64,000 nt of DNA. It comes from a virus. Its lineage: Duplodnaviria; Caudoviricetes. Every line of letters begins with the position of its first letter. Position 1 is the first letter of the stretch. The notes below the pieces were generated by a model. That model had not been told where the DNA came from. It made no database searches and saw nothing but the letters and a program-made list of their open reading frames with translations. This document shows, piece by piece, positions 16,330 through 60,835 of the stretch. The position numbers were made by a program, and so were the translations under genes. The stretch lies in IMG/VR virus record IMGVR_UViG_3300028603_000002, positions 64,001 through 128,000 of that record; one strand, given 5' to 3'.

Positions 16330-16332
16330 CAA

Positions 16333-21452: not shown

Positions 21453-21513
21453 CCTGGTTTAAAGCGCGTATTTTACATGTACGAGATCATTGGTTCGAAT
21501 CCAGTTGAGGGCA
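21438..21513 (+). tRNA. tRNA-Val(TAC)
   Basis: CGTAT-TTTACAT-GTACG. Overlaps the upstream stop codon. Confidence 0.85.
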
Positions 21514-21603
21514 CTAGAAAAATATATGAAAAATATTTCAAGAAATATTTGGTTAATTGGAAAACATTACTTATCTTTATTATGAAATAAAAGAGTATAA
21601 GTT

Positions 21604-22050: not shown

Positions 22051-22110
22051 TTAACCCATATCAAATCTTCCATCAGGTAACAGCGTATAAGTGGAGACTA
22101 AGGGTTATTA

Positions 22111-22192
22111 AGGCGTATACCAGCCCATCCTGATAAGATGGAGAACTGTAGCAGGTAAGTTGAAAACATGGGTTCGAATCCCATTACGCCTA
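22111..22192 (+). tRNA. tRNA-Ile(GAT)-like, no D arm, long variable arm
   Basis: AGGCGTA/TACGCCT-A acceptor and CCATC-CTGATAA-GATGG. Only 7 nt in place of the D arm. Confidence 0.7.
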
Positions 22193-22395
22193 CAAAAAAT
22201 GTTCATTGAAAGATATAACTGGAACTTCCAGATGAAAGTGAGTGTCGAAAGCTCATTAGATAACGGTACAAGCCCGACCCAATTGGATGCTATCATTGTA
22301 ATCTGATCAGAAGTTATGACCCTCTGCCAATGCATTGTAAAACTTGAACGCAGTTAACAGTAGAGCGAGACGGGTACTCTACACAGTTATTTTTT

Positions 22396-22470
22396 GGACC
22401 TATAGTTCAGTTGGTTTAGAATTACTCGCTCATAACGAGGAGGTCGCAGGTTCGAGTCCTGCTAGGTCCA
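22396..22470 (+). tRNA. tRNA(CAT), Ile2 or Met
   Basis: GGACCTA/TAGGTCC-A acceptor, loop CTCATAA. Confidence 0.85.
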
Positions 22471-22472
22471 CT

Positions 22473-22559
22473 GTGTACGAATCGGATATGGTTTGCCGAG
22501 TCAGGTTGTGACCCTGGTGTGATGAAAGTCACGTGCGAGTTCGAATCTCGTCGTACACC
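22473..22559 (+). tRNA. tRNA-His(GTG) with long variable arm
   Basis: TCAGG-TTGTGAC-CCTGG, C73, extra arm GTGA-TGAAAG-TCAC. Confidence 0.8.
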
Positions 22560-22564
22560 TAATT

Positions 22565-22640
22565 GCCTGGAAAGCTTAAGTCTGGTATAAGCGGCGGTTT
22601 GTTAAACCGAGGATAGTGGGTTCGAATCCTTCTCTAGGCG
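22565..22640 (+). tRNA. tRNA-Asn(GTT)
   Basis: CGGT-TTGTTAA-ACCG, G73. Confidence 0.8.
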
Positions 22641-22734
22641 CAATTTCAAAGTTTAATTATTATGTTAATTCAATTATTATTAATAATTTTATTGTTTATT
22701 GGAGTCTTATACTTCAATACTAGAAAATAAGTAG

Positions 22735-23319
22735 ATGAGAATAATATTCGATATTCATGGAAAGATGCATCGGTATAAACAATTAACAACTGATGTCAAA
22801 AAGAGTGTACAAATAGGTGATTTAGGATTTAAAAGTCAACATGAATGGTTTTTAGCTAATATGGATTGTGATAATCATAAAGTATTATTTGGTAACCATG
22901 ATTATTATCCATATATAAATCTAAAACATTCGTTGGGTGATTTTGCTTTCTATGAAGGAATATTCTTTATACGTGGTGCTGCTTCAATTGATAAAGCATA
23001 TAGAGTTGCTTATAGAGATTGGTTCCCAGAAGAAGAATTGAATTTTAGACAAATGACTGAATGTTTCAATCTTTATAGTGAAATTAAACCAAAGATTGTA
23101 GTTAGTCATGATTGCCCACAAGCTGTATGCAAAGAATTATTCGGGCATCCAGGTTCTCACACAAGAAATTTTTTACAATTATTATTTGAAGAACATCAAC
23201 CTGATATGTGGTTATTTGGCCACCACCATCAAAATGTAGAATTGGTTCTTGATAATACTTATTTTAAATGTGGTGAAGAATTAGAATATTATGATATATC
23301 AGAAAATTTATTAAAATGA
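22735..23319 (+). CDS. metallophosphoesterase
   Basis: DIHG, GDLG, GNHD, GAASID, SHDCP and FGHHH motifs. Confidence 0.85.
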   Translation: MRIIFDIHGKMHRYKQLTTDVKKSVQIGDLGFKSQHEWFLANMDCDNHKVLFGNHDYYPYINLKHSLGDFAFYEGIFFIRGAASIDKAYRVAYRDWFPEEELNFRQMTECFNLYSEIKPKIVVSHDCPQAVCKELFGHPGSHTRNFLQLLFEEHQPDMWLFGHHHQNVELVLDNTYFKCGEELEYYDISENLLK

Positions 23320-23322
23320 AAA

Positions 23323-23396
23323 GGCGCTATGGCGGAATTGGCATACGCACATGTTTTAGGAACATGGTCTTGTGGGTTCGAGTCCCACTGGCGCTA
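23323..23396 (+). tRNA. tRNA-Leu(TAG), short variable loop
   Basis: CATGT-TTTAGGA-ACATG. Confidence 0.85.
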
Positions 23397-23401
23397 CTAA
23401 T

Positions 23402-23473
23402 AGCTTCATCGTTCAATTGGAAGGATACATGGCTACGAACCATGAGATGGGGGTTCGAGTCCTCTTGAGGCTA
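23402..23473 (+). tRNA. tRNA-Arg(ACG)
   Basis: CATGG-CTACGAA-CCATG. Confidence 0.9.
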
Positions 23474-23490
23474 CTAATAAAGGATATAAT

Positions 23491-24063
23491 ATGATAGAAA
23501 AAGGATACCAAATAAATGTTAATCAAACTTTAACAGTTATTAATGATGCAATTGAAAATAAAGGATTTCATCTATTAGAATCAGTTTTAGATCATATGAG
23601 GTTTGATCCATTATGTCCTAAATTAGATGGTTGGTTAAGAACATTAACTAAAGATGAGTTAATGAAATTGTTTTCAATGTATATTTCTTTCAGACATAGA
23701 AATGAGAAAAACAAATCAGGAATATTGGAAGATTTTATTGCTGAGTTTGAATTGATTATGGTATCTAAATTTATTGATTTTGATTTTAGATTAAAATTGA
23801 CAAATATTCCGGAATCAAAAACATATATTGATTTTATCAATGAGTATGAAGAACGTATACGAATACTAAGTCTAAAAGAATGTGCTGCAATAGTTGATGA
23901 TATTGAAAGATCACTAGTGTCAATTATACTATTAAAAGAAGATTGTATTAAATTGATTCAATCGGAAGGCGCAATAGATAAATGGAAGTATACAAGAACA
24001 GATAAATATAAAGAAGCGAGAGATATTATTTTAAAGTATACAAAATTAGCTCCCGTCATCTAA
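23491..24063 (+). CDS. hypothetical protein
   Basis: 190-aa ORF with an AAGGA RBS. The 3' end overlaps tRNA-Arg. Confidence 0.6.
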   Translation: MIEKGYQINVNQTLTVINDAIENKGFHLLESVLDHMRFDPLCPKLDGWLRTLTKDELMKLFSMYISFRHRNEKNKSGILEDFIAEFELIMVSKFIDFDFRLKLTNIPESKTYIDFINEYEERIRILSLKECAAIVDDIERSLVSIILLKEDCIKLIQSEGAIDKWKYTRTDKYKEARDIILKYTKLAPVI

Positions 24064-24120
24064 ATGGAAAGATATGGGTCTTCTAAACCTAACATACCAG
24101 TTCGAGTCTGGTCGGGAGTA
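24049..24120 (+). tRNA. tRNA-Arg(TCT)
   Basis: GGGT-CTTCTAA-ACCT. Confidence 0.85.
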
Positions 24121-40600: not shown

Positions 40601-41176
40601 GTTGGCAAATTGCTAAACCGCTTAATTACGAAAAGAAACACACCACATTAAAGGAACGATTTGCTATGGCAAAGAAAGTGTTATTTGGAAAAGCAATAGC
40701 GGTGCAATTTTTTACCGACTTGACCGAAGAAGAGAAAATTGCGTATGTAAAAACACAACTTCCAAACGAAGTAGTAACGTAGCTATCGGCTATAATATCC
40801 CTATAACCTTAACGTACAAGTTGTAAACGCCTTTAAAGTAGAATTTGAGGTATGAAAAAACTAACTAAAAAACAGATAAAAATGATTGCGACAATGCACT
40901 CTGCAATGCACTTAGCAGGGGTGGACTTCTTTATGTTCGACCAACATTGTAACGCAACAGTTGATGAGCAATCATTGATTTTGAAAGAAATACATTCTAT
41001 AGCAGAAAAATTATCTAAAGGGGAGGCAATGAATTTAGGTTCAACGGAAAATATAATTAATTACGTGCGTGGGAAATTTTAATTTATTTCCTATAACACC
41101 CGTATAAACTTAACTACCCACAGCGATAGGCTGAACGCTAGCGGGACGGGTATAAACAAAGTAAAACGAACGAATT

Positions 41177-41320
41177 ATGGAAATAACAATTAATTTACCT
41201 GAATGGATTGCTTACATAGGTGTAATTTTAATAGCACTATGGGCAACAGATAAAACACTATTACTTATAAAAAAGTGGTATGAATGGAGAATACGCAAAT
41301 TGAAAGACAAAAGTAAGTGA
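41177..41320 (+). CDS. 47-aa membrane peptide (cassette gene)
   Basis: MEITINLPEWIAYIGVILIALWA... Below the ORF-track cutoff. Confidence 0.55.
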   Translation: MEITINLPEWIAYIGVILIALWATDKTLLLIKKWYEWRIRKLKDKSK

Positions 41321-41635
41321 GTGTATGAGTAGGGAGATTTATTAACGAAAACTTTAACAAAATGACAAAGCAAGATTTTGACAGATATTTAGATTATTTA
41401 ACGTCTGAAACTGGATATGACTTTAATAAAGTGCAAAAAGCATTTGCATACCAAGCAGCTAAAAAGTACCATGAGCAAGCCTTACGCAAGCACGATGCTG
41501 TAGAGCGAAGTGAACAGTGTTGCTCACCTACCGATGGTTTTTATTTAGGAACTACTTGTCCGCATTGCAACAAACCTTTCAGAAAGGATATAAAGTGAGC
41601 AACACTGCCTACAACACCCGTATAAACTAAACATC

Positions 41636-41803
41636 ATGAAAGTAAAAGAGCTAATTAAAGAGCTTCAAAAGCAAGACCCGGAAAAGGAGGTAATGATACA
41701 GCAGGGCGAAGAATTTGACTACATGTCGATTCAAACTGTAAAAGAAATGTATGTAGATATGGACGAGGAGATGATTCTATCCGTCGTTATCAAACATTCC
41801 TGA
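41636..41803 (+). CDS. 55-aa hypothetical protein (cassette gene)
   Basis: MKVKELIKELQKQDPEKEV..., starting 4 nt after a repeat copy. Confidence 0.6.
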   Translation: MKVKELIKELQKQDPEKEVMIQQGEEFDYMSIQTVKEMYVDMDEEMILSVVIKHS

Positions 41804-41807
41804 TTGC

Positions 41808-41939
41808 TGCCAACGGTTCGCAGCTATATTTAGTTGCGGATTTAGAACCACAAAACTTTAAGATTAGATAAAATGAAAATGAAAAAAGAAAATTTGGATA
41901 ACCTACAAAAACCGCAATTGAATATAGCTGCTGTTAGCA
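41808..41939. mobile_element. attC-like recombination hairpin overlapping the start of the 41873 gene
   Basis: AAC(41812)..GCAGCTATATTTAGTTGCGG / CCGCAATTGAATATAGCTGC..GTT(41933). Confidence 0.7.
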
Positions 41940-43838
41940 ACAGTTGTTTAGTCTGCGGAAAGCAATTAGTCAAAGAAACTGCCGAACATGGTAACGGTAC
42001 GTGCTCTGAATATTGTAATGCTAAATATAGCGGGTATCCAATGCCACACGATTATTCAGAAGGATTACAGAAGTTAGTTAACAATTGTTGCTAACGGTCG
42101 TATAAACTTAACTACCTGAATGAGCTAACTGATAACATTAATCACCTTTTAAAGTGTCATTTTCAATTATGGGAGCAGAAACAAAGAAATTAGCAGAAGT
42201 GCGCTACGTTACAGATACAGACGTAAGTTACTATGAAATTGGGGAAGTCGAAGGCGCGTTCCAAGAAGCACAACTTAAAGACTACATTAAAAGATTTGGG
42301 CACGAAAAACTATGTAGCCGACTTGCTTATATGCAGTTCCAAATATTTAAAGCTGTGCGTGAAATTAATGGCGAACGTGATGAAGAAACAGGTGCGGAAT
42401 GTTGTAATGCTACATAACACCCGTATAAATGGTAACGGTTATGTATCTGGTGGCGAGTAGCAGGGGAGTTGTAAACCCCATTGCAATGACAATGACAAAC
42501 ATTGGTAAAAACAGTGCAATATGCTTCCTCGCCACTTGTACATCACGGCTACGGCTGAACTCTCGTTGCCGACCTAAATACGAGAGATGAACTTTCAAAC
42601 ACAAATTACGATGAGTAAAAAAAACAAAGCATCGAATCAACAACAAGGCAATGGAGCTTTAGCCAATGTTAGCATTAGTGCTTCTTCGGTTGGTTGCCCA
42701 GAGTGCAAAAAGAAAGGCTGCGGATTCTGCAACGGTACTGGATTAATTTGGTTTTATCCTTCACCTGATGTTTATGACCATATAGAGATATCAAGAAGAA
42801 AATGGCGAATAGCTCAAAGGCATAAATGCTAACACCTGTATAAACTTAACCATATCCGCTATGTGTAGTAGCGGTTAAATAGAGCGAAAATTATGAATAT
42901 AGACGAAGTGATCAAAGAAATTAATGATTTAAGTGCTGAAATACAATATGTAGGCATTGATTCAATCAAAGATGATTATTCCGCACAACAAGCACTTCAT
43001 ATATTGAAGCAGAGAATAGAACCATTACCTGCACACAAAGTTAGACGTTGTGCTTTTCAGTATTGGGACGGACGTAAAATAGTTGAAGATAAAGATCAGC
43101 TTACACTTGATGAGGCCAAAGAGCTATGGAATAAACACTATACTGATATGGTGAAGAAAGTCGAAGAAGGTGAGGATATAGAAGTTGTTATTTGGGTTAA
43201 CATGAAACATCCATCAGATTATCAGGAAACTTTAATTCATTTATACGCACCCGAAGTTAGGAATGGCAGTCTTTATGAGCCTAAATATTATGGTGCAACG
43301 ATATAGAATTAAACCTAAAAATCAATAACAGATAAAACTTAATAAAATGGAAGAAACTAAAAAGCAAGCATTACATAAACTAATGACTAATGAAGAAATA
43401 CTTAGCTTATATAACAGAATAACATCATTAGAACATAACAGAATAACATCATTAGAATATAGAGTTAAAACTCTTGAAGAAGAAATTGAGAAATTATTTA
43501 AAATCAATATACAACTGACAAAAAGAATTTCAAGATTGGAAAGTAAAAGATTAATAAAAGGTAGAATAGGAAGAAAATAAAACTTTGATATATCATGACA
43601 TTTAAAGAACAATTACGGAAAGATTTTATCCCCAGATTGTAACGGATAATTGAAAAAGAAATAGATCATTTAAAATGGTTGATGGATAATAATGCCGATG
43701 AGAAGATGATTGAATCTAGTGTGAAGTATTTACGACATTATAAAAAACGACATAGGGAGTATACCGAATATGCTGCACAGACAGATGATGAAAATGATTT
43801 TTAGCATTGCATTAGGGTATAAGAAAGCAAATTCAGAA

Positions 43839-44237: not shown

Positions 44238-46479
44238 AAATATTCCTTTTTACCAACAGCCATTAGTTATTTCGTAATATGAAATAAATATAAGGAAGTT
44301 ATTTGTCCTAATATTTCTGTCGGTATAATGTTTTATGTTAGTTTATGATTAGATTTATATCTTTCAGCTAGTTCTTTTAATGTTCTTTTGTCCATTGCTT
44401 ATATCATTTTAGGACTGTAACTAACATATGATTTATCCATAATTACTTCCATTAACCTCAGATCCTCAATAGATAACAGTCTAAACTGTACTGGGTCTTG
44501 GGGTATTTTATGAAGTAAACCATATCTCTCTTTATCATAGTTCAGACATAGTACTCTAACATCGTAACTCGGACCAACATCTAAGTAAAGAGTTCTCCCT
44601 ACAAAATATGCTTGCCGCAACTCTTCTAATGATTCGTTATGTTTCCCTGCCAGAAATCTTAAACAATTTGTTATGAATCTATGAGATAAACCCATTGTTC
44701 CATACCATTCAAGTAATTTTCTTTTTTCTTGTATGTCCATTATATGCAGTGTTTTATAGGTTACATAATTAACCTGATAAGTTATAATTTATACTATTAT
44801 CCTTAAATGCCTTTCGCAAATGTTTCAAGTTTCTCTCACAATGATTAGCAAACTCCGGGTCCGCGCTCCCGATGCTTGATGCATTCTCTTCTATCATACA
44901 CACAAGAGCTTCAAATTGCCTGGGTGTTAGTACCAAAGTTATCTTTTTTGCCATTTCTTAATAGTGTTTAGAAGTTATTGAATTAAGAAGGAATATCATT
45001 TCCATCATATTGCTTGAATTGTTTTTGTGTCCATCTTGTTGTGAAATACCCTTTTTTATAATTGAAATGTGATGATCTAACACAAGTACCACTAAACATT
45101 TCTCCGTACTCTTTTCCTTGTGGAGTTTCATTTAGTTTTCCGGTACATCTGACTACAATCCCATCGCTCTCTACCAAATTGCCTTCCTTAAATAAATTTA
45201 ATTGTTTCATCTTTAATAGTGTTTAGTTATCTAATACTTCTTAATTACATAATAAAGATAAGTAAAGTTTTTCAATTATCCAAATGATTACGAGAATATT
45301 TTCGAGAAAGATGAGAAAGATGCTATATAAAACAACCCATATAACTTAGTTGTAACAAGAGATAATCTTTATAATGGTATAAGGGTATAGATTCTCATAA
45401 ATAATCAAGGAGAATTAAAGTATGTGGGTGATACAGCAAAGTATAGGTATGGTGAGATAGTAAAACTTTAAGTGATGGCATATTAATCAGACATATTCTA
45501 GAGCCATTGAAGTATAAGATCTTGATCAGTAGGATTTAATCTCTTTTCTGAAAGAAGTTGTTTTAATTTAATGCTCATTATTTTCATTCCTTTTATATAA
45601 TTACTTGATTTCTAATTCACCCTCGAATGGGTTGAAACGATCTGTTAAGAATGAAGAAGATCTATGTCCTTTCTTAATATGGGTTCCTTCGGCTCCTACA
45701 ATAACAATACCACTAAATACAGTTTCACCTCCCCAATTATCAATTTTACCATCACAAAGAACTACATATTGTTTAGATGTAACGTCTGATTTAAATATAA
45801 CAAATTTATCTTTGCCGAATATCTCTTTTATCACTCGGTCAAAATCTGAGGTTGATTCATCTTCTCTTAACAAATCTTTTAGTTTTGTGCTCATTACAAT
45901 TTTCTATTTTGCAATAAATATAAGGAAGTTATTTCAATTATCCAAATGATAAGTAAAACAAGTTGCATTGAATAACAAAGTACTTTGAAGTACAAAGTGG
46001 ATATAATCAGAGGGAAGCAAAAACAATCGTTGGAGGAATAAAATATTTTTTATACATTTATAATCAAATTAACTAAACTAAAAATAATAGTATCATGAAA
46101 AAAGACAAAGAGTAAGATAAAATAACAAATGCAAGTATAAGACCAGGAATTGAAGAATTCACAGTACACATGCTTTACAACGCATTGAAAGCAATGAAGA
46201 AAGATAAAGAGCGGGAGGAACTAAATTCAATAATTCCAGATAAAGAATTAGATGATGCATTTACAAACACCAATTTCGGAAATATTACAAAAAGAGATGT
46301 AGTAAGATATGCACTATTAAAAGCAGCTTGTGGATATTATAGTGGACATACAGCTCAACGTATTATAAATGAATTAGGTTTGTGTAGTAAAGATTTAAAA
46401 TTAACAAAGAAAGGTAAAAAATATTTGTATGCATCATTTAGGAATGGAACGAATCATTAAAATAAAGTAGAATACTGAA

Positions 46480-47160
46480 TATGTGATATACGTGTAGAAG
46501 AATAAAAGTATAGTAGTATAAGTAGTTATAAAGGTTAATGGAGTATACTGATATAAGATGTATAGATTAGTAGATTGTACCACTGAGCGAAGCGAAGTGT
46601 TGAAGTAAAGTGTATAGGAATAGTTTAAGCAAGTAGAATAAAGTTATTAGGTTTGAAGGTTTGTATACGGAACGGAAGGAACGAAGTGACTGGAGTGGAG
46701 TGTATAGAAGGAATCTATACGATTAATAAAGTTATTAGTTTTACCTATATCCTGGAGATAAGTATAATTAAAGGTCTAGTTAATATTATATACAGGGGTA
46801 AGTAAAGATTTTAAAAGTACTTTGAAATACAAAGTGGATAATATATGAAAAATAAACTGTAAGGGTTGCTCTGAGTCTTCGCTTGATCTCCACAATTCCC
46901 AAACTATATTAAACTTTAATCTAATACCAAATCTTAATAAAACCAAATATCCTATTGTTGGGTGTAAAAAATCCGCGGCCTACAAAAATAAGATCAAAAG
47001 ATTTATAAACTTTAATCCACTAAAACCAAATAAAACTAAAGTTTCATAGAAATAAATACTAAACAACTTCACTCCAGTCACTCCAGTCACTTCACTTCAC
47101 TACACTATGTTACGTTTCACTTAGTTCCTTTCGTTCAGTACATAAACCTAGGAATCAATT
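46480..47160. repeat. strand-asymmetric non-coding region with an imperfect inverted repeat
   Basis: 46659-46704 GGTTTGTATACGGAACGGAAGGAAC..GAAGTGACTGGAGTG is complementary to 47070-47150 CACTCCAGTCACTTC..GTTCCTTTCGTTCAGTACATAAACC. Confidence 0.65.
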
Positions 47161-48287
47161 AAACATTAGTATTTGGTTATCTCCTATGTATTCATTAACT
47201 TTATTATCTAATTAACTAAACATATTATGGATAAATACGAGATTACAGTATGGAGATCTGATAAGGATAATGATCCTTGGGTGGAGTATGTATATGCTGA
47301 TTCTAAATCAGAAGCTTTTAAGAAAGGAAAGGAAATGTTTTATTCATTTCAGGTAGGTAGTATATATGATGTACTTGTAGTGAAAGTTTAAGTGTTCTGG
47401 AATGCCCGTGAGATTGTAACTATTCCCAGAATCTTGTTATCACTTGTTTTCCTTAGTTCTCCTGTGTTTTATTGTATATTGGATACCTTATTATACCTTT
47501 GCTGTATCTCTTATTATACGTTAGTTATACACGTTATACAACTATATGAAAAATAATTGGTTAAAAGTTTGGAAATCTGAAAAACTTTACTTATCTTTAT
47601 TATGTAATTAGGAAGTATTAGATAACTTAAAACACTATTAAAGATGAAAAAGATATCATTAAAACAAGTAAAACAAATAGCCTCTGAAATTTCAAAGAGG
47701 TGGAAATTTGTTAAACACAGTTCATATTACAACTGTATTGATACTAAAACTGGACAGGAGTCAAATGTGGGAGGAGATTATAATTTTGCCAGTTATCATT
47801 TTAATAATGCTGTTGAGGCAATGTATTTGAGTATGATTGGTGAGAACGCGTTGTATCTTGATTGGAGTACAGTGGGTGTGAAAGAATCTGAGGAACGCAA
47901 ATCCTACATTTACAAAATACGAAAAGAGATAGTTCGACTTCTTTGTGGTTTTGACTTTGCGGGTTGCGAAGTACTTAATTATCAAAAATAACTTAGTAAC
48001 ATTAAACAAAATGGCAACAGAACAAAATATAAAAGACGGACACAGATATTTGATACAATTAAGTGTAAAGCAAGATAGCTTTTTGTTTAATATGTGGGAT
48101 TACGTTGAAAGTGTAAAAACACTTAAAGAGGCAGAAAAGCTATGTGAAGGACTATATGATAAAAGCGTTCACAAACTTCAAATATGTGATTTAGTAACGA
48201 ATACTATTGTTAGAACGTGGACGTAGCCTTGCAGCTAACATCCATATAAACTGTACATAAAATAGCAGAAATTAAAACAATAACATT

Positions 48288-48821
48288 ATGATAAACAATA
48301 TAGTCATTAAAAATGAAACCCGTGAAATGGGGAGGAAAATAATTAAATACTTCAATGATCGAGGTATTGATACACGTATACTTAATGGCACAGCTTGCGC
48401 GGAAGAAATGCATAACAATATATACTATGGAGTTATTGATGGTTATTTTGATAACTACACCTTAAAATATGTAGAAAGAGCAGGGGCTAAAATAATAACG
48501 CTACCTGAATACCCAAAAGTAATGAGGGTAGCGCATGATAAATATTCTACCAGAACCCAACGTGTGGTCATAGGTACAGCAGATGCTGGCACCCATATCC
48601 AATATGTTGCATATAGAGATGCAAAAACATTAGATGATATACCATATCCCACTGAATTCAGGCTGTGGGACTATGCGGAAGATATTACAGAAACAGAACC
48701 TATCCTAATAGGAAATAGAGAAGTAGAAGTAACTGAAGATGGAATAAAGGTAGGTTGTACACAGGTAGACAATGAAACAATAAAAAAGATATATAACTTA
48801 AAATTTAAAGATAATGAGTAG
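48288..48821 (+). CDS. hypothetical protein, N-domain paralog of 51008..51556
   Basis: Shares RG.DTR.L.GT.C and YYGVIDG.FDNYTL..VE.A.A.II.LP. Confidence 0.7.
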   Translation: MINNIVIKNETREMGRKIIKYFNDRGIDTRILNGTACAEEMHNNIYYGVIDGYFDNYTLKYVERAGAKIITLPEYPKVMRVAHDKYSTRTQRVVIGTADAGTHIQYVAYRDAKTLDDIPYPTEFRLWDYAEDITETEPILIGNREVEVTEDGIKVGCTQVDNETIKKIYNLKFKDNE

Positions 48822-49592: not shown

Positions 49593-51007
49593 TTTGTTAT
49601 ACCCGTAGTACACAAATAAACAATGAAATACTTGTATATCTCAGAAAAATTCATTATCTTTATTATGTAAATAAAAAGTAGAAGTTATGACAACTAATTG
49701 TACAACTTGTAGTAATTGCGGGCAGGTTATTGAAAATGTCATTATCATAAAAGGGAAACCTTATGGTAATACATGCGGTGCCAGACTATTAGGATTCAAA
49801 GAATTTCCTACTTGGTTTAAAGGTGGTGATTGGGATATGGCACATAAAGCGCATATCAAGTCACAGGAAGAGCAAAGTCAGTATTTTGAACGTAGACGAG
49901 AGATTACCCGCAAGCATTCTTTTCTGCTCTTGCAAGGTATGAACGATCGTTAAAAACTCTACAACCATAAATACCTTCAGTCGTCAACCTCTTAATCTCT
50001 TTCCAGGACTTCACCCGCACTTTATCGCCGAGTTTAAAATCTGTAGACTGTTCACCTGCTTGTTTACCGTTACAGGACGTATCTGCCGGTGTTGCAAGTA
50101 ATTGGTCAAGCTTGGCCTCGATGCGGTTTAGCAAATCCATCAACTCGTCATCTTGCACGGATACGAGGACTTTGGCATCTTGCGGTGCTTCCGCTGGCTC
50201 GGGGTATTTTTCAAAGAATAGAGTGTAATTACCGTCATTAAGGACCGATTTCCAAAATGAATAGTCCTCCGGGGTTTCAAACCAGTCAAATCCGCCATTT
50301 ATTCTGCCAGTGGTCCGCCTCTTCTCAAACACGCTCACATCTCTTGGATTACCCTGCGTCACCTGATGCTCTAACATCTTATGAACAATTGGGTCTGCAA
50401 TGTTTTTAAGGTCGCCTTTGTATGAACATTTCATTTTGCTTGATTTTTATGTGTGAATTAATGTTATTCTTCCTCCTCCCACTCAATCAACGGACAGTGG
50501 TCGTCTTTTAATTTCTTCAGGCCATGTCCTACTGCTTTAAAGCTCTGACCTGCTTTAGATTCGCGGTTCCTCAACTTTTCAGGTAGTGCTTCGAAAAAGA
50601 GGTAGCTTAATAAAACCGTAGCTAATGCCGCTACGGGAACGAGAGCAAATACCAGAGCTGCGGCCCATACTACTTGGGATGCTGTGTTTATATATCCCTG
50701 ATCTAACTGAATCAATGCAGGCATAATGGAGATTATCAAATGAGTCAGGCCGATGCCCCATAATGCCTTAGTGCAATACATACTATGCCATGTAGGTTTA
50801 GTAGTATCTTTATCAAAATAAGACAATATATATGCTATAGAATAGTATAACACCCCCGGTATTGCAGTCACTAAGAGAAGTATAATCCCCACTAGCCCTT
50901 TCCATGTAAGGCTACACCAGTTAGTAGGATAAGAGTATGGATTACCTTCAGTAAACTGCCAGGCTTTTACGAATAGGTTGTTTTTACTCAGTTTCATAGC
51001 GGGGTAT

Positions 51008-51556
51008 TTAGCTTTTGATTATTACCTGGTCAACGCCCAATTTCTCGGCTATTTCCTCCATTGTAAGCTCCATTATAATTTTGGGCGGAGTGTATTTGTA
51101 CTCGTCGGTGTAGAATAGATCGTCAATGCTACCTTTGATGTACTTATCTGCCTTCTCGGGCGCCAAAACTGAATCCCGCGAGATTATTCCGTCCTTTTTG
51201 GCAAATAAATATAGAAGGTGCTTGTTTTCGCTGACTGAGTCGCGACCATATAACCAACGATACCCCAACTGAATAAGCCTCACCTGAATAGCTCTTGAAA
51301 GTTCAGCGGTAGGCACATTAAACACATAGCCGCCGATTGAAGGTAATTCAATTATTTCAGCGTTGGCTTTCTCTACTTGACGCAATGTGTAATTATCGAA
51401 TTCCCCGTCAATAACTCCGTAATACCTGTAGGAATCACCATCAGATTTACAAGAGGTTCCTACAAGGTGGCGTGTATCAAATCCCCGACTTTTCCAATAC
51501 TCAATGACCTTTGCCCCGTGGTCGGGCGTTAGTGCTTCAATTACTTGGTTTTTCAT
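51008..51556 (-). CDS. hypothetical protein, paralog of 48288..48821
   Basis: Shared N-terminal domain. C-terminal ELTMEEIAEKLG motif. Confidence 0.7.
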   Translation of the reverse strand: MKNQVIEALTPDHGAKVIEYWKSRGFDTRHLVGTSCKSDGDSYRYYGVIDGEFDNYTLRQVEKANAEIIELPSIGGYVFNVPTAELSRAIQVRLIQLGYRWLYGRDSVSENKHLLYLFAKKDGIISRDSVLAPEKADKYIKGSIDDLFYTDEYKYTPPKIIMELTMEEIAEKLGVDQVIIKS

Positions 51557-52068
51557 TTTACAAAAGTTTTTGTTCGTTCTAAAATCTCATCCCCCAACAT
51601 CCTGCGAACAATATCGGCAGTTTGGCGTTGGTTGGCCGCTTTGTCTGAGGCAGTACGGTCAGCAGCAGCAGCAGCAGCAGAAGAATTACCACAAACAGCA
51701 CAATAAGCAGCATCAGCAGCAGCAGAACGATAACCAACAGTAACAGCAGCAGCAGCAGCAGCACGATAAGCAGCCTGCAACTCTTCCTCCGTAAGCAATC
51801 CCTCTCCGTAGGCAATAGCCGCATCAACACCCTTTATGCTGCGCGCATCTTTCATCAAATGCCTGACCGTGTTCGCACAGTGTCCTGCGCAGCCGACTAA
51901 TTTACGGCGATAAACGCCCGCTTTCTTCGCCCACCATAGCAGCCAATCGCCACGATGGCAGTCGGCTAAGGTTTGGGTAGGGGTGCGGTCGCCAAGCCAG
52001 TCAATGGCATCTTCGCAGGCAGGACCTAAATGGCCTTCGTCTGATAGTAGAAATTCTCTGAATGTCAT
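51553..52068 (-). CDS. poly-Ala tract protein
   Basis: RGDWLLW and D.RS motifs followed by GCT-repeat poly-Ala. Confidence 0.65.
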   Translation of the reverse strand: MTFREFLLSDEGHLGPACEDAIDWLGDRTPTQTLADCHRGDWLLWWAKKAGVYRRKLVGCAGHCANTVRHLMKDARSIKGVDAAIAYGEGLLTEEELQAAYRAAAAAAVTVGYRSAAADAAYCAVCGNSSAAAAAADRTASDKAANQRQTADIVRRMLGDEILERTKTFVK

Positions 52069-53205
52069 AATATAGATTTAATTACAATGTAATTTAGCAA
52101 GAAATTCCATTTATCACAAATTGTGGGTGCGCAATTTACTATTTAAAATGATAAAAAAGAAGGTACACTACCTTTATAGTTCACCTTCTTGAAAACACGA
52201 CCCGACAAAACTTTTACAGTCGGAATTGGCCGATGAGTTCATCAGCATGGTGACACTCAGCATGACAGTCGCAATTTCCAACACAGCTGTTTCTTGCGGA
52301 TAGCCAGAGATGATTAATCAATGGCAATTGGGAAGATTTCGACAACCCTGATAACAAGTCATTCATGCTAATTACTAACCATGATTTACTATCATGAGTT
52401 TGTACATGAATTTCTTCCACTATGTCGTCATCTAACACAAACTTAATCCTGTTACCATTATCTTTACATTCATAAATTACTTGTTCCATTTCTTTTTGTT
52501 ACCTTAAATTTCAAAATTGCCAGTAGGGTGAGGGTCGAACTCACAATATAGCTTCTGAATAAAGTGGGTTGCCAATTATTATCCTTTTCCCTAACGCTCC
52601 TAGACCAGTCTTATACTTTGTTACTTGATGCTGGTTTTAATTAAGCCTTTCTAATTAGAACCTTTTGATTATACTATAAATATAAGAAAGATCTTTCAAA
52701 GTACCAAATTATTTTGAATAAACTTACGTAATCAGTTTGATGGTACAGCACTGGAGCTCCTAAGTGGAGCTCCAGATTTTAAAAATATATGGTATGGTGC
52801 AGAGTTGCAAACTCTGTTTTGCCAACAAAAGAACTATGGCTAACAGCACCTAACCTCAATAAATTATCACGGTATTCATCGGCTGTAAAGTTTTCAAAGT
52901 TTGTGGTTTCTATATTCATTTGTACTAATTTTAAGTTGAAGATGTTAAGCTTATACGGATGTTAGCAAACATTTTCCAACCCACACCGCACTTGAATATT
53001 TCCAAGTTCCAATTCTCTTTCAATATCTTCAATATCTCTCCAACAATCTACTCCAACTGTATAACTATACCATCCACAAAAATCTTCAATACTATCATCA
53101 AAATAACCTTCTGAATATATTTCATATTCAAAACCATCGACAAATTCTTCTATTGTCGGTATTCTATATCCTTTTCTTAATTCTTCTGCCATCGCTAAAA
53201 ACGTT

Positions 53206-53299
53206 TGCTAACAAGGTATATATGCAATACCCTATTAAGGTTTGTACTAAATTTTAAAGTTTGGTGCAAGGGTGCTGCATATATACCCAACCGTTAGCC
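53206..53299 (+). mobile_element. complete attC-like site
   Basis: GCTAAC-AAGGTATATATGCAATACCCT...AGGGTGCTGCATATATACC-CAACC-GTTAGC. Confidence 0.75.
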
Positions 53300-54987
53300 A
53301 CCATTTGACGACCGTTGTACTTCGACTGCAATTTCTTCAAGCAATTCAAGTATTTCATTTGCCCAAGTGTGGTCTATGTTTATTTTTGATACCTGAGTGT
53401 CAAATCCGAGCTTTTTAGCAACATCCATATCGTGTCGCATTTCGCCCTTGAATCTCCTGTATTCTTCTTTTTTCTTTGTGATGAGTTCTAATACTTTTTC
53501 CATAACCGTTATCATTTATACAGGTGTTGACTACTCACCAATATAGTGTGTTTCAAAATCATAACCATCATTTACCTTTTGAAGTTTACCTTCGTCAAGA
53601 TTTATGATTTCTCTTATATTTTTAAGTTTAGTGTCAGCAATTTCTTTTGTGTGTATTTCAATATCAATACCTCCAGAACCGTCACCATCAATTTGAATTG
53701 GCAATAATCTGTTTGCACCAACATCACCACAATATTGTATTTTTCTGAGAGCAATCATAAAATCTTTTAAATCTTCATCAGAAATTGCTGTAATTCGCAA
53801 GTCAATAAATTTTCGTTCCATATTGTCGTTTTAAGTCGTTAAAATTATGTGCGCATAGCCATAACCGTTACCATTTATACGGGTATTGTAGCACATACGC
53901 TCACTACTTTTTCGGTTTCAATTTACCGTCTGCACATTTAGGGCAGTATATTGTTTGATGTTTTGTAATTCTCCACCCTTTTTTACTCCACGCACTGGCA
54001 GCATCATACGGGTCGCAATCCATTTCTCTTCCAATAGTTCTACACTTATGGCACATTATTGTGTTTTCAGTAGTACAATGTTCGTATAGTTCATGTATTT
54101 CATCCATCTCCGTTCGTTTTAAGATGTTAGTAATAGTTTATAAGGGTATTATCGGCAATTATTCCCAAGTAATTTCCACCATTTTTGCATCTTCCATCAT
54201 TTTCATTAATCCGCAAAATTCTCTCCAATGATATTCAGTTATTGTTTCACCTATACTATTACTAAGTTTATTTAAACAGTTGTATATCTCTGTATTAATA
54301 TAACTACCGCTAACAACAGGTGTACTTGATGCTTGTGTTTCTGCCATTTGTAAGTTCGGTTCTTTTTTCATGTTGATTAGTTGGTTGGTTTATACGGGTG
54401 TTATAGGCAATTGCCACTAAAGTATCTCTCTACATTCGGGACAATAATTTTCAGCAATTTGTTGAACCCATTTTTTATTTTTATGTTCACATCGTGGCAA
54501 CTGTTCGCTTTGCCGTACAACATTGTATAAATCCAATTGCTTACGTGCTTCAATCAATTGAGCTTCCAACCAATCCTTGTAGTTGTCGAGGTCAAAGTGT
54601 ATGTCTGTTTCACCAACCGTTTCAGGATGGTCAAGTCTAAATTCTTCTTCAAATGTATATCTCATAATTTCTGTTTTTTAATTCGCCCTACGCATACAAT
54701 CGACCGTTAGCGTTCAGCCTATCGCTGCGGGTAGTTAAGTTTATACGGGTGTTAGGTGTAATGTCAACACCATTCTACGCTAATCACTTTTAGTTTACAC
54801 CCATCAACATCATTTATTACATGCCCTTCCTTGGGGTGAGAGTCTGTAATTGATATTGGTTCATTTGTCGGTTCACACCCCATTTTGAACAATAGTCTTG
54901 AACCTTTAGGTAAAAATGCTTTTGAGGTCTTTGTGATGAACCAAGTTTTTAACTTTTCGTTACCCCAAGCAAATCGAACAACGCTAC

Positions 54988-55107
54988 ACCTAACATCCGC
55001 TATAGTGCACGTATGTTCTGTTGTTTTTGTAATATTTTGCATAACTCAAAGTTTATTTCTGTTTGGATGCGTTATTGAAGCCACGCACCATAGCTTTACC
55101 GTTAGGA
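54988..55107 (+). mobile_element. attC-like site containing the start of the 54764..55042 gene
   Basis: CCTAAC..GCTATAGTGC / GCACCATAGC..CCGTTAGG. Confidence 0.65.
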
Positions 55108-56288
55108 GAAGTTAAAGAGAAAACCAATCACTTTCCTCTTGTCTACTCAGAAGCTCCTCAACAGCCTCTTTGGTAGCAGGACAAGCGGAGTAAAAACAAT
55201 TCTTTGCTTTCACCTCAAGTTGCTTCAGCTTTTCAAAGTCTCCGTCCACTAATTGAAAAAGAAACAGAGTTTGCTCGTTGCTGTGATTAGTCCGATCGGT
55301 TAACCAATTAAGTCGTTCTTTATCAAGCTCGTACTTATAGGTATCTTTGCGTCCATACTTCAATTCCATATTCTATTAGCTTTACGATGTTACTGTTTAT
55401 ACGGGTGTTAGACGCAACGCTAAGAAACCAACCTACCTTCGACATTTTCTTTCATTTTGATTAACTCATCCCTATAACCAGAACCACCATCTTGGTTGGA
55501 ATAGGGCATTTGCAAGTGTTCATTTATTTTTACCAACAACTTAGCTGTTTTCACTTTGTTATCCTGATGCTGGTCAATCCATTTATTGTATTTACGAATA
55601 ACTTTGTTTAGTTTGGTTCTACCTTCTTTCCACCAAGATATACCTACATTTTCATCCCACTCTACTATTTTTTCCATATTCCGTTCGCTTTACGATGTTA
55701 CTGTTTATACGGGTGTTGTGTGTAATTAAAGCAAGCCATCGTTATTTTCGCCCATCATCGTATCAACGGCTTTTTCAGCATCTTTAGCCGCACTTTTAAG
55801 CAGCTTCTTTGTGTTTTCAGGTTCGTTTCCTGTGGCTACATCTACCACGTCTTTTACAATTGCAACAGGTGTAAGTGCTGTTTTTACTGCTGCTGAAATT
55901 ACGTTTGTTAAGAATCCCATTTGATTAAAATTAACTGCTGCCAACAATGTAGTAAGGCACAGGCAGCGTTTGTGCTTATCGCTGTGGGTGGTTGAGTTTA
56001 TACGAGGGGTAGGTGTAATACTAAAGATTCCTACTAACCAACCCTGTTCCATTACACCAAGTACAATCTTCTTCATTACCAAAATCGTCTATTTCAATTT
56101 TACCGCCACCCCAACAAACAGTACATTCCAATAATTCCTTAGTGGAAGTACTGCTGCCAACAGCACCTAAATCGCTATTGGCGGTGCTGTGGTTGTTCTT
56201 ACTTTCGTTCTTACTTTCGTTCATTACGGTTTAAGTTTTACCGAGTTTCCTAAATTGAGGGTAGTTATGTTTATACGGGTGTTGTGCT

Positions 56289-56693
56289 TCATGCAAGGAA
56301 ACTCCCGTGCTTAATTATGAAGTACAGTTTATTAGGGTCTCCGCCTAAATCAGGCTTGCCCCATCCGATCTCAATTCCTTTGTGTTCCATTTTCAATATC
56401 CTTTCCTTATCAGTTGATTTTGGATAACCCAATGTCATTGTGTTTGTAAGGAATGGCTTAAAACCAATCATACTTCTTTTCAATTTATCCCCTGCAATAC
56501 TTGACAGATAGGCGTTTATAGATTGTTTGTCCAAGTAATCCCAATCATATCCAGACGTGTACTTAAAAACCTTCTTATAGTCAAATACAAGTCTTTTAAA
56601 CCAGTAATCGTTTATGTCTCGATAATCTTCGGTTTTTACGCCCGATTTGGTCATGTCGAACCATTTTTTTTTAAGTGATAATTGCAAATTCAT
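56289..56693 (-). CDS. ASCH/PUA-like domain protein
   Basis: L.LKKKWFDM.KSG.KTEDYR....YW..RL and LGY motifs. Confidence 0.75.
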   Translation of the reverse strand: MNLQLSLKKKWFDMTKSGVKTEDYRDINDYWFKRLVFDYKKVFKYTSGYDWDYLDKQSINAYLSSIAGDKLKRSMIGFKPFLTNTMTLGYPKSTDKERILKMEHKGIEIGWGKPDLGGDPNKLYFIIKHGSFLA

Positions 56694-56715
56694 TTTGTAT
56701 CAGTTAAGCACGAAA

Positions 56716-56844
56716 GCACAACAATTGCTATAAAACATAGGGCGTTCGTGCGGTTATTAAAGTGTAGGGTTGTTTTTCAGGTGTTCGGTGTTTTCGAACA
56801 ATTCGGCTATCTATACCCTACGTTTCATGGCATAGCCGTTAGCG
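56716..56844 (+). mobile_element. complete attC-like site
   Basis: GCACAAC..GCTATAAAACATAGGG / CCCTACGTTTCATGGCATAGCC-GTTAGC. Confidence 0.7.
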
Positions 56845-56845
56845 T

Positions 56846-57034
56846 TCATTTTGACGACGCTCTCCGTACTTCTTCATTAAGCACATCGTAATTGTCTTTA
56901 ATGTACGCCTTTACATCGCCACTGCATTTGTTATTGTCATACAACCAAATCAGATAAGACGCAGGGACATTTATCATTTTATAACCTTGATATTTTCCCC
57001 AAGGCATAGGGCTTTCATCTGTTAAGTTTGCCAT
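56846..57034 (-). CDS. DUF3820-like small protein
   Basis: MPWGKYQG.....VPASYLIWL. True ATG at 57034, just after a repeat copy. Confidence 0.7.
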   Translation of the reverse strand: MANLTDESPMPWGKYQGYKMINVPASYLIWLYDNNKCSGDVKAYIKDNYDVLNEEVRRASSK

Positions 57035-57071
57035 TTTGTTTAAGTTTATACTGGTGTTGTAGCACATACGA

Positions 57072-57287
57072 TCACTGCACTTTTGGTCTCCAATGTGTGA
57101 TTTCGTAATCAACATCACCATACTGTCTGTAATCGTAATGTCCAATTCCTGCCTCAATCCACCAAGTATCCCCCAAGTAGTAGCCAACAAGTATCTCATC
57201 ATTATAGTCTTGCCTTAGCTCACAATCAATAGGCTCATCGTTTGCGTCTAATTCAGGCAGTCTTTCATTTACATTTATCCAATTCAT
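57072..57287 (-). CDS. DUF551-like protein
   Basis: WINVNERLP...ITHWRP. A related gene lies at 59308..59508. Confidence 0.7.
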   Translation of the reverse strand: MNWINVNERLPELDANDEPIDCELRQDYNDEILVGYYLGDTWWIEAGIGHYDYRQYGDVDYEITHWRPKVQ

Positions 57288-58923
57288 ATCAGTTCACGTT
57301 AAGTTTATACGGGTGTTAGCAGCAATTATGCCCTTTTAGGATAGTGCTTCATACATTTGAAACAAGCCATTTCATCATATAGTGGTTTTAACTCAACATT
57401 GCAATCAGGGCATAACTGTTCGCTTTGCCCTACAACATCATGTATGTGTAAGGCTATGTTTAGTGCTTTATCAGCAAGTTTGTAAACAGTTGTAGTTCTA
57501 GCAAGCTGTTGTGTTTGCATTTGATGTTCCTTTATTTCTTCAAGTATCTTAATTATATCTTCCATTTCTAATAATGTTTAGTGTGAATATTCGCCCTACA
57601 TATACACCCGGCCTTTAGCGTCCAGCCTATCGCTGTGGGTGATTAAGTTTATACGGGTGTTATGTGCAAGCACTACTGACCTGCTTCTTTATCAAGTTTT
57701 TTATAATGTCGTATAACATACGCAAGTTTATCTCTAAAATTAACCCTTCGCAATTGTTGAATAATGTCGCTGAATTTTTGTGCTTCATTATCAGGTATCA
57801 TCGAAATTAGTATATCATCGTGTTCGCAATGTATAGTTTCCATAAAATCATCTTGTGTCAAGCCTTCATCACAATGGTCATACATTTTTAATCTTGATGC
57901 TATTTCAGCACAATATTTGTGAGTTTTCCAGTCGTAAACTTGACCATCGTATTTGTGAGTAGATTTTATATAAGTATCACCTTTAGGTATTCTACACGCA
58001 CAAAAATTACAACTATGTTCTTTAATGGCTTTCGTTTCTTTTGGGTATGTTAATGTTTCCATATTTTAATCAAATTTTAGTTGTTAATAACCCGCTACTA
58101 CATATATCGGATGCGGTTAAGTTTATACGGGTGTTGTAGGCAAGCTCTACTTACATCTGAAGTGAGTGAGTACTGCCATCGGATGTTCATCTTCATATCT
58201 ACATTCCGTACCATCATCAAACCTACACAGGCAGTTTCGTTTTGCGTACTCATTGAATATTGATTCATTACCTTCAAATTCGAGCCAGCCACTAACAGCA
58301 AATAAATCCAATATTCTGTCAGCGGTATTGGCAACGCTTTCACCTATTATACACTTGTTTAATAGGTCGATAATTTGTTCTCTTTTTTCCATACTGTCTT
58401 TATTATTTAAGTTAGTTGTAATGTCTCCATACTAAGCCACTCGCCTTTATATTTACCAGTGTAAAAGGGTATATTGCAAAAGCTCTCCAAAAGAAGGAAA
58501 CTTCGGCATCAAGTGCGCTTAGTATCCCGATAGTGGCGTACCACATAATCCATAATCCCACTATAAGCACCACCGCTAACAATCTACGAAATGCATTCCT
58601 ATTGGTTTCTTTATAATTTTCATCCATGATTCTATGTTTTGTGTTTATTTATTAAATTCTATGGTTCAACGCATCTAATACTCTTCCGTTGGCAGAAATA
58701 CAAGTTGGCCGTTATCCCATCCGCTCAGGTTAATTTCAATCGGCAAAAGTGACTCCTTGCCGTCATATATGCCGTGCGTGTATTGATGCAAAAACGCTAA
58801 CTGCTCATTCTCTGTCAACTCGCGGGTAACCTTAAACGACCCAGAGCCTATCGTTTCGCCAGTGTCACGTTGGTAAACTTTGAATCTGTATGCAAATCTT
58901 TGCATTCTAATTTTTCTCTAATG

Positions 58924-59301
58924 TTAGGCACAAGCACTACCGACACGCTCCAAAATAGCATCTGCGTGACAAGGAGAAGAAAGCGAGCAAAAACACGCTA
59001 AATCCTTTCCTTTTAGTTCGGTAATGCTTGGCGGAGTTGGCAAATAAGGTGCAATTGCTTTTAATTCACCATCAAGCCATCGGCCGTATAAATCAACAAT
59101 ATCTTTTGTTTCAAATCCACCTGAATAACTCCACATTATCCAAGGGTCTAATATTTTCCGATTAGTCGAGTAGCATTGAATAAAGCCATCATGTGTTAAT
59201 CGAAATGGATTTCCCCATTTAGTAGGTCTCCCTACATACTTTGCGTTTTCGGGCATTCTCCATCCCTTTGTTCGCCTTCTTTGTATTCGTTTCATAATCA
59301 A
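58924..59301 (-). CDS. DUF4326 family protein
   Basis: YVGRPTKWGNPF and ELKGKDLACFC....CHAD motifs. Confidence 0.85.
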   Translation of the reverse strand: MIMKRIQRRRTKGWRMPENAKYVGRPTKWGNPFRLTHDGFIQCYSTNRKILDPWIMWSYSGGFETKDIVDLYGRWLDGELKAIAPYLPTPPSITELKGKDLACFCSLSSPCHADAILERVGSACA

Positions 59302-60580
59302 AATTTATCACTTATTTGGTAGTTCTGGCAACTCCGTCCAATGAGAAGGGAACACGCTCTCCCCATTTACTACCCATGTTTTGCCATCTTTGTGTAAATG
59401 TCCAACCCTCATTATAGAGTCTTCACCTGTTTCTTGAAGTATTAGCAACACTTCTACTTCCGTATCGGGGGTATTGTAATTTACATCAAACCAAATTGTT
59501 TCATTCATATCTGTTCACGTTAAGTTTATATAGGTGTTAGCAAACATTAGGTAAGTGATATGTAATATTTTTTCTTTTGATTTTCGACTGCATCAACAAA
59601 CCAACTTGGTAAGTTGTATTCAGTACATATTTTTTCAAACTCTATTTTAGGTAAGTAGCCTTTTGCTCTATCTTCTGCATACATTTTTATATGTAGGTTT
59701 ACACTACCTTTCGTCTTTAATAGAGTTTTTAACTTTTCAGGTTCACAAGTTGGTTTTATTACACCATTAGTATCATATAGGTAAAAACATTCCTTTGCGG
59801 TTTTACCGTTTTTATCAAATTGTATCAATTCAATTCCTTTTTTATTATGATAGTATTCAGTACCATCAAAAGAAAAAATATTAGATACAGATAAGTACCA
59901 ATTATAGTCTCGCTCAAAGTTTTTGCTGTATTTCATAACGTTTGCTAACAAAGTGTATGTGTAATAAGGCTACTTATCTACTACCTTTTCAACTTTCAAC
60001 TCATAAAGCTCACCTTTGTATTTAAACTGAACTTTTTCTTCAAGCTGTAAAAGGTGTTGAGCTACTGCGCCAACAGCCGTATCTGTTACATCATGTTTTG
60101 TTTGCCCCCAAGTTCCGTTCTTCAAAACTCTTCCAGCAAATAATCTACTCGTTAAAGGTGAGCAACCTACTTTAAAATCTGACATAATCTTTTTGTTTTA
60201 ATACTGACTACTTTACATTCCATATCAGTTTCCGTTAAGTTTATATAGATGTTGACAGCCATTTATTGAAACCACTGCTTAATCTGTTCTGTTCTTTGTT
60301 CGATCATCTCATTAATCTTTGGCAGCAATGGATAATTAGTTTCGTCAATCCAAACAGTTTCAGACTTACCATCTTTGCCTAATATAACTGTCGGAGTTGC
60401 TACAGAATAAATTTCTGTTCTTTTAGCGTGGAGTTGTTGCAACTGGTTATCGTTCAAGATCGCTTCTGAAATTAAACGGGGGCGAAGAGCGTATTTATTC
60501 AATGTGGAGTTTTTGTCGTTATTGTTCATTTCGGTATTTCGTTTTAATCTTCCGCGCTGGCATAGCGGATGACGTTAAGT

Positions 60581-60835
60581 TTATCCGGGGTTGATTGTGT
60601 CTTGAAACTTCTTCCTCAATGCTGACATCATAGCCTCAATAGCCCTGGGCATTTTTTTCACAACTTCATCTTTTGTTCGGCCCTGAACGACAACACCCTT
60701 AAGCTCCTTAATAATTCCTATGAACAATCCGGTTTTCTCATTATGAATTATCACCCCAGTGAAATTCTTGGTTTGTGCTTGTCTTCCCATGATAAGTGCT
60801 TTTGATTGATGTATGAAATTAATTAGCTTCCACAT
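60581..60835 (-). CDS. HicB-like small protein
   Basis: ELKGVVVQGRTKDEVVKKMPRAI pattern. No adjacent HicA seen. Confidence 0.6.
   Translation of the reverse strand: MWKLINFIHQSKALIMGRQAQTKNFTGVIIHNEKTGLFIGIIKELKGVVVQGRTKDEVVKKMPRAIEAMMSALRKKFQDTINPG

Follow-up and report, generated by a model that had tools for sequence, protein, structure and literature searches.

Introduction

T4-like phages keep many small open reading frames (ORFs) in a hyperplastic region, where conserved promoter-bearing repeats, named PeSL and PmSL, occupy almost every gap between them and have been proposed to mediate ORF excision, insertion and swapping (Arbiol et al., 2010, PMC2839356; Comeau et al., 2014, PMC4122927). 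A second kind of intergenic element is the attC site of integrons: clusters of two to four such sites each have been reported in 17 phages (Qi et al., 2023; PMC9892861), and in such CALIN phages, which are virulent and carry no integrase, the small genes are separated by imperfect hairpins that start at AAC and finish at GTT. Here we describe a locus that combines traits of the phage attC clusters and of the PeSL elements, as a variant of both. It lies in a stretch of 64,000 nucleotides, the window, that covers bases 64001-128000 of IMG/VR virus record IMGVR_UViG_3300028603_000002, and it consists of two convergent arrays of small ORFs punctuated by a 20-nt repeat and, at a minority of junctions, by attC-like hairpins.

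Small ORFs without a known function make up most of the genes of large phages, and little is understood of how they are gained and exchanged. At this locus the unit of exchange can be read directly, as a single gene and the site that precedes it, with the cut in a core of four bases. We read the arrays as convergent series of single-gene cassettes of two kinds, the first bearing a hairpin and exchanged at the core, the second bearing the repeat as a promoter-type unit, and we put the probability of this reading at roughly 0.55. What stands out in comparison with described systems is the scale of the arrays, the sharing of cassettes across unrelated phages, the reversed position of site and gene, and a repeat that corresponds to half a site.

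The virus record, of landfill origin, is a complete genome of 171,908 bp, with direct terminal repeats and 31.7% G+C. Its large genes are of T4 type (gp20 portal, gp23 capsid protein, tail sheath and terminase, and further a family B polymerase and a fused Mre11/Rad50-like protein) and mark it as a T4-like phage, and both arrays are located in the hyperplastic region of the genome. The host is probably a member of the Bacteroidota, since Cellulophaga phages give weak DNA matches to the genome and a promoter motif of the -33/-7 type precedes many genes. A public ENA contig of 169 kb represents the same phage (100% identical across 14.4 kb). Searches for a sister genome with two neighbouring proteins, of 620 and 182 aa, returned relatives of 33% identity or none, and the repeat carried by the relatives at 33% identity is an ordinary Bacteroidota-type promoter.

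Results and Discussion

Two convergent arrays share a 20-nt repeat

In the minus-arm array (52944-60592) the minus strand encodes all of the roughly 26 ORFs, which are 46-134 aa long and are also supported by the gene calls made on an identical public contig; their junctions hold 17 copies of the repeat. Convergent with it is the plus-arm array (41095-43580, plus strand), whose small ORFs are accompanied by repeats at 41095, 41613, 42093, 42416 and 42831; a diverged, outlying copy (48237-48256, plus strand) lies upstream of a 177-aa ORF (48288-48821). Read on the gene strand, the repeat is AACACCCGTATAAAC, mostly followed by TTAAC. The copy at 54734-54753 (minus strand) has the exact consensus, and the AAC of the other minus-strand copies starts at 52963, 53528, 53887, 54150, 54402, 55409, 55717, 56010, 56283, 57058, 57317, 57661, 58135, 59538, 60253 and 60592.

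The repeat is far too frequent for chance: its 14-nt core, with up to two mismatches, has 19 matches in the window against 0.7 expected, a number reached in none of 100 shuffles. A 15-mer search with up to three mismatches finds 16 minus-strand copies between 52944 and 60253, and one extra copy with a 1-nt deletion (60574-60592) brings the minus arm to 17, in agreement with the approximate number given in an earlier reading of the window from its letters alone, which we call the original prediction. Six further copies on the plus strand between 41095 and 48256 make 23 overall; the 172-kb genome has four other three-mismatch matches, all apparently random. Scanned with the exact 15-mer, IMG/VR and metagenome contigs yielded only isolated matches of the kind expected by chance, and a second genome with the repeat was not found.

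All 23 copies are intergenic and have the same orientation as the small ORFs of their arm. The original prediction had the genes antisense to the site, which has to be corrected: with the genes encoded on the minus strand here, the repeat has sense orientation and lies immediately upstream of each ORF. As predicted, the preceding stop codon is close, 0-18 nt before the AAC of the repeat or overlapping it. From the repeat to the next start codon there are 8-81 nt; in two copies the first ATG overlaps the repeat, and an in-frame ATG follows 12 nt further on. Information content is high solely across the 20-mer and drops on both sides, in keeping with the predicted end of conservation at the repeat edge, apart from a weakly conserved TGC about 8 nt upstream. 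Most copies are framed by two AAC cores 17 nt apart, and at several junctions (53853-53873, 54689-54711) the AAC that ends the repeat directly abuts a typical left arm of the hairpins described below. Because the second core is continued in this way by a left arm, the repeat behaves as a separate 17-nt module set between two cores, and the module of that length in the original prediction holds as a unit of its own.

This placement bears on the possibility that the repeat acts in RNA, as a processing site or as the binding site of a translational repressor in read-through transcripts of the arms. Such a role would suit a sense-oriented, intergenic element in arms that have no evident terminators and are likely to be read through, and T4 has regulators of this type, RegA and RegB. 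However, a translational operator would not be expected to lie at so variable a distance, 8-81 nt, from the start codon, and the repeat is unstructured and abuts the previous stop codon, not the next ribosome site. We consider a function in RNA very unlikely.

Two long non-coding gaps of the plus arm (46460-47227 and 47391-47644) contain many short GTATA-containing repeats and runs of direct repeats.

A family of attC-like hairpins

The hairpins share one layout: the end of a cassette, AAC, 4-6 unpaired nucleotides, a stem of 10-20 bp, a loop, the returning stem, 0-3 unpaired nucleotides and GTT, with the bases past GTT complementary to the 3' end of the following cassette. Array segments of five phage groups contain 25 such AAC-to-GTT hairpins, against about three in shuffles. 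Among them are 24 different stems, and their spacers are asymmetric in a consistent way; compensatory changes occur in 11 of the 19 consensus pairs in an alignment of 15 short members, and six of eight elements fold as single-stranded DNA with z-scores of -2.7 to -4.8. We trained a covariance model, R1, on other phages only, without this genome, and searched both strands (344 kb). Its significant matches in the genome are just three (53202-53303, 41804-41943 and 56712-56848), all of them in the arms and in gene sense.

The hairpin at 53202-53303 (minus strand; R1 37.6 bits, E 7e-5; DNA fold z -2.7) is a full attC-like element upstream of a 76-aa gene, composed of AAC, a 4-nt spacer, a 13-bp stem, the loop, the returning stem, a 1-nt spacer and GTT. 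With the 76-aa ORF (52962-53192) it makes up a mobile cassette at 52961-53296 (minus strand) that has a TAAC core at each end. A long attC-like element at 56712-56848 (minus strand; R1 29.3 bits, E 0.003) lies upstream of a 134-aa gene (56289-56693), and the flank of its right arm is complementary to the 3' flank of that gene at 56281-56289. The element at 54992-55103 (minus strand) is identified by a stem scan and by flank complementarity, its end pairing with 54751-54760, and R1 is silent on it at E up to 10. The three hairpins that the original prediction regarded as surviving are therefore recovered, two by the covariance model (53202-53303 and 56712-56848) and one by the stem scan (54992-55103). 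In the plus arm, the element at 41804-41943 (plus strand; R1 32.0 bits, E 9e-4) also has stem evidence. A further cassette (59536-59970, minus strand) contains a 129-aa ORF (59547-59936) between ends that form an inverted pair; its upstream hairpin is decayed, with an internal deletion. Four elements have the shape of the attC sites of CALINs, an imperfect palindrome of 55-140 nt from AAC to GTT with spacers, and the sites near 53.25, 55.05 and 56.8 kb lie on the same strand less than 2 kb apart, within the CALIN definition of at least two sites within 4 kb.

At two places the right arm and GTT core fall inside called ORFs: 41873-41943 lies in a 73-aa ORF (41873-42094) and 54992-55042 in a 92-aa ORF (54764-55042), which means either that the starts were annotated too far upstream or that translation of the gene continues across the site. 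In other metagenomes, the roughly 110 nt at 53196-53306, which hold the first hairpin, exceed the remainder of the stretch in depth by a factor of 25 to several hundred, and one metagenome contig links the end of this segment back to its start, with a step of 111 nt. Both observations point to copies of the site elsewhere that are in tandem or have no ORF. The contigs of four runs showed many other joints, but their sides were short or their inserts unknown, and they are given no weight here.

Topologically, the hairpin corresponds to an integron attC site, except that the gene lies on the other side. As in a classical integron, the core is G|TT, the 5' end of a cassette is complementary to the inverse core on its own 3' side, structure but not sequence is conserved in the site, whose spacers are unequal, and single-gene units follow each other in direct arrays. 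In contrast to a classical integron, IntI is absent here and neither an attI nor a Pc is apparent, the complementary ends reach 8-14 nt where those of the classical integron measure 7, and the gene is on the other side of the hairpin, so that a cassette could bring its own expression signals. The CALIN study differs in its two to four predicted sites per phage, and gives neither cassette sharing between phages nor a dedicated short repeat (PMC9892861). In the present phage, unlike the CALIN phages, the hairpin goes with the downstream gene, with which it moves together in block comparisons, and most junctions have only a half-site that does not fold.

One training member of R1, P12002L_attC1, is a site predicted by HattCI in Polaribacter phage P12002L. 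In this phage (contig L192, 29974-41006, minus strand) about 12 junction elements of the hairpin family can be seen by eye between small genes and methyltransferase genes, far above the two sites reported for P12002L.

Cassette ends are self-complementary

The sequence GTTAGCAAAC occurs only four times in the genome, as two inverted pairs that flank two unrelated genes. Among the 39 arm genes, four have an exact complement of at least 10 nt between their 5' and 3' flanks, compared with 1.3% of non-self flank pairs, and each of these four complements takes in the repeat's four initial bases and goes no further. The four complementary flank pairs quoted in the original prediction are all present. 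The same property extends to array segments of relative contigs (16 segments from 14 loci): 25 of their 140 small genes have ends that are complementary over at least 5 nt beyond GTT/AAC, against 1.6% of cross pairs, with at least 15 different end sequences among the 25.

Unrelated phages carry the same cassettes

The 129-aa protein (59547-59936) has 345 homologues, one of which, at 88% identity, occurs in six contigs from five samples. When aligned (alignment A1), these six copies are identical from an AA(C/T) core about 100 nt upstream of the ATG to the core after the stop codon; outside the cores the six upstream flanks are all different, and the downstream flanks are four different sequences. 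The copy in the present phage becomes unalignable with the A1 contigs at the same 3' core. A tblastn search of isolate phages with this protein gave no match. The 76-aa protein (52962-53192) is identical in 18 contigs, and the eight places shown are two in this phage and six that are foreign. At five of the six foreign places the shared block runs from within a TAAC that precedes the ATG by 100 nt to within the TAAC at the stop codon; the sixth (L197) is cut at its 5' side. Two related contigs of temperate-looking phages, L181 and L182, show a permutation of three blocks with junctions exact to the base, and in a cassette bearing the repeat (57673-58062) the 3' homology also ends at the core.

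In every intact context examined the block ends agree within 1-3 nt. Past the core, 3-4 of 8 flanking positions differ, and further out there is no similarity. Because these flanks share too little similarity, ordinary homologous exchange is disfavoured, and the pattern fits site-specific exchange better; the blocks are mobile cassettes of one gene each, in which crossover is confined to a short, fixed region. Breakpoints in relatives had been suggested as a check on the original prediction, and this check supports it, with unrelated phages carrying the same cassettes and the breaks falling at the core. Exact-protein look-ups of two proteins from repeat-bearing cassettes and of one from a plus-arm hairpin cassette returned this phage only, or nothing.

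An explanation by regulation and homology would need no enzyme: the repeat would be a promoter, the hairpins would be terminators or RNA-stabilising stems, and sharing would proceed by relaxed homologous or microhomology recombination, as in the PeSL model. That the phage is T4-like speaks for it, as PeSL and PmSL act in this very way in other T4-like phages; a loose 8-nt consensus before the core at cassette 3' ends could supply the microhomology, and no recombinase was found. But the block ends coincide within 1-3 nt despite differing flanks, self-complementary ends in at least 15 sequences have no role in the PeSL model, and the hairpins have no T-runs. We regard this explanation as rather unlikely.

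The repeat as a putative promoter-type module

The 20-nt repeat is not an attC hairpin site. Its right arm and GTT core are absent, R1 has no match on the repeat junctions, and for six repeat-bearing junctions the folds (z -0.84 to +0.39) do not surpass those of shuffled sequence. It does resemble the left arm of a hairpin, having the loose end consensus, AAC, a 4-nt spacer and GTATAA, and the variant at 42093 starts with the CGG typical of left arms. Left arms that lack a right arm are also frequent in contig L181.

Two other upstream motif classes occur in the genome. The first, TTTGG and, after about 19 nt, TATCTTTAT, is the Bacteroidota-type -33/-7 pair and is found mostly before accessory genes; the second is a -7-like box, TATATTTAT, that stands alone and is found mostly before structural genes, for example that of the sheath. 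Examples lie upstream of window positions 13500, 21604, 47644 and 61411. The two resemble classes of early and late promoters. Neither is present at the repeat-bearing arm genes. The repeat is thus probably a promoter-type 5' module of the cassettes, as suggested by its orientation, position and absence of structure, by the lack of both other motif classes at the genes behind it, and by the habit of T4-like phages of placing shuffling-active promoter elements (PeSL, PmSL) between small ORFs.

The repeat shares with PeSL and PmSL its location in the intergenic spaces of a T4-like hyperplastic region. In PeSL a stem-loop immediately precedes a -35/-10 promoter of host type, and elements of the PeSL/PmSL group may have a Mot box plus -10 in place of the early promoter, whereas the repeat has neither a host-type promoter nor a stem-loop: its junctions contain no -33/-7 pair, and no stem between stop codon and repeat. 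It is also shorter (15-20 nt) and, unlike PeSL, sits beside a fixed 4-nt core that it shares with the attC-like hairpins. Like the MotA-dependent middle promoters of T4, it is a third, sharply conserved motif limited to a block of small accessory genes; in contrast to them, it has no similarity to the MotA box, homologues of MotA/AsiA were not detected by profile, and its function is putative.

Two other promoter assignments were considered and dropped. A late promoter of the kind found in giant phages with their own polymerase does not suit a genome that is T4-like and whose largest scanned ORFs have no polymerase match. The opposite strand of the repeat resembles a -7 box, as an antisense host-type promoter would, but the -33 element is absent at the right spacing.

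In the mechanism that we favour, every cassette ends at a short TAAC core (gene strand), just after the stop codon or overlapping it. Cassettes of the first kind, four or five in the window, have the imperfect hairpin of 55-140 nt upstream of the ORF and move between unrelated phages, most likely via strand exchange within the core by an enzyme that is probably a tyrosine recombinase supplied in trans. Cassettes of the second kind, about 23, have only the 17-20 nt repeat, which is like a left arm, lacks the right arm and cannot fold. We infer that the repeat forms a third class of promoter or regulatory site, recognised by an RNA polymerase that the phage has modified. In addition, some 20 near-identical direct repeats could provide short homology for the excision, insertion and shuffling of repeat-plus-gene modules, in the way shown for the PeSL elements of other T4-like phages.

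Evidence for and against enzymatic exchange

Several results weigh against this mechanism, on the side of the enzyme and on that of the repeat. In six frames, neither PF00589 (tyrosine recombinase) nor TIGR02249 (IntI) matches anywhere in the complete 171,908-bp genome, and a resolvase (serine recombinase) profile is likewise unmatched; the recombinase profile controls matched in 14 of 14 genomes. The absence of an integrase from the window, noted in the original prediction, thus extends to the complete genome, and the proposal that the phage collects cassettes is not borne out by a recombinase gene of its own. The search for IntI beyond the window was equally negative in the rest of the genome and, for canonical IntI, in 301 sampled Flavobacteriaceae genomes, and Polaribacter phage P12002L has no annotated recombinase. 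Its site P12002L_attC1, the one hairpin of the family that has been put to an experiment, gave no recombinants with IntI1, and the neighbouring attC2, in the opposite orientation, recombined with IntI1 (PMC9892861); experimental support for integrase action on the hairpin family is for this reason mixed.

As for the repeat, it matches neither the Bacteroidota -33/-7 consensus nor the two classes of the genome itself, so that as a promoter it would need a further factor. No profile match was obtained for Sigma70_r2, MotA or a T7-type polymerase, T4-type factors being too divergent for such profiles. In a few copies the start codon is merely 8-10 nt from the repeat, which would give nearly leaderless mRNAs if the repeat is a promoter, and for homologous recombination the 15-20 nt of identity would be a short stretch. 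When 25 left arms of other phages are combined into a sequence profile, the consensus repeat goes unscored, the sole repeat variant to appear being that at 42085-42106 (E 0.43), and for this reason we keep the relation to hairpin left arms as a resemblance only.

The same searches bear on whether the locus is an active phage variant of an integron, in which the 17-nt repeat would be an attI-like double-stranded site re-created at each acquisition, with the integrase coming from the host or another element. The framing of the repeat by two cores, as a separate module, would be expected from such a variant, and the core-located exchange of cassettes in relatives is real. However, attI is not duplicated in any known integron reaction, and none predicts its regeneration with each acquisition. 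Further against it are a genome without integrase, the lack of canonical IntI in the flavobacterial sample, and the finding of repeat-bearing cassettes in this phage only, the hairpin cassettes being those seen to move. We judge an integron variant of this kind distinctly improbable. No IntI gene lies beside the array, as it would in a complete integron; at the array head nothing like a unique attI site is seen, a site type that has no general model, and the first minus-arm gene has a host-type -7 box. From the integron-like reading of the original prediction there remain the cassette boundaries at the core (AA|C when read along the gene strand, G|TT along its complement), the self-complementary ends and a minority of hairpin sites; the repeat itself does not belong with them, being unseen by both R1 and the left-arm profile.

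For the mechanism with hairpin cassettes exchanged at the core, a candidate enzyme is encoded on the L181 contig, where a 221-aa tyrosine recombinase (L191:10650-11315) lies beside a repressor-like gene, together with a long array of hairpin cassettes. Its best match is an Xer-type model and is weak. We tentatively extend the argument to a wider picture, which we hold possible but somewhat doubtful: phages of Bacteroidota, from small temperate-looking ones to T4-like myoviruses, may share a pool of self-contained single-gene cassettes, with site-specific exchange in the TAAC core beside an upstream attC-like hairpin and without a canonical integron integrase, the enzyme perhaps being an Xer-type recombinase of the host or another tyrosine recombinase. 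In the present phage the left arm would have become a promoter and landing module at about 23 junctions.

Were an enzyme to act at the core, this would be an integron-like system operating between viruses with its defining integrase absent, and the few phage attC clusters reported would become instances of a general mechanism of phage mosaicism. Were the repeat a promoter, it would represent a new transcription class in T4-like phages of Bacteroidota. The cassette sites are concrete substrates for recombination assays.

Other features of the window

A dense cluster of 21 tRNA genes and a tmRNA gene (17035-17409) occupies the plus strand at 16256-24120. Rfam searches of the window at gathering thresholds returned tRNAs and one tmRNA, and nothing else. 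Overlapping plus-strand ORFs follow in series at 85-10317, several of them matching glycosyltransferases. Between the convergent arms, at 49904-52068, lie four neighbouring minus-strand ORFs of 171-182 aa.

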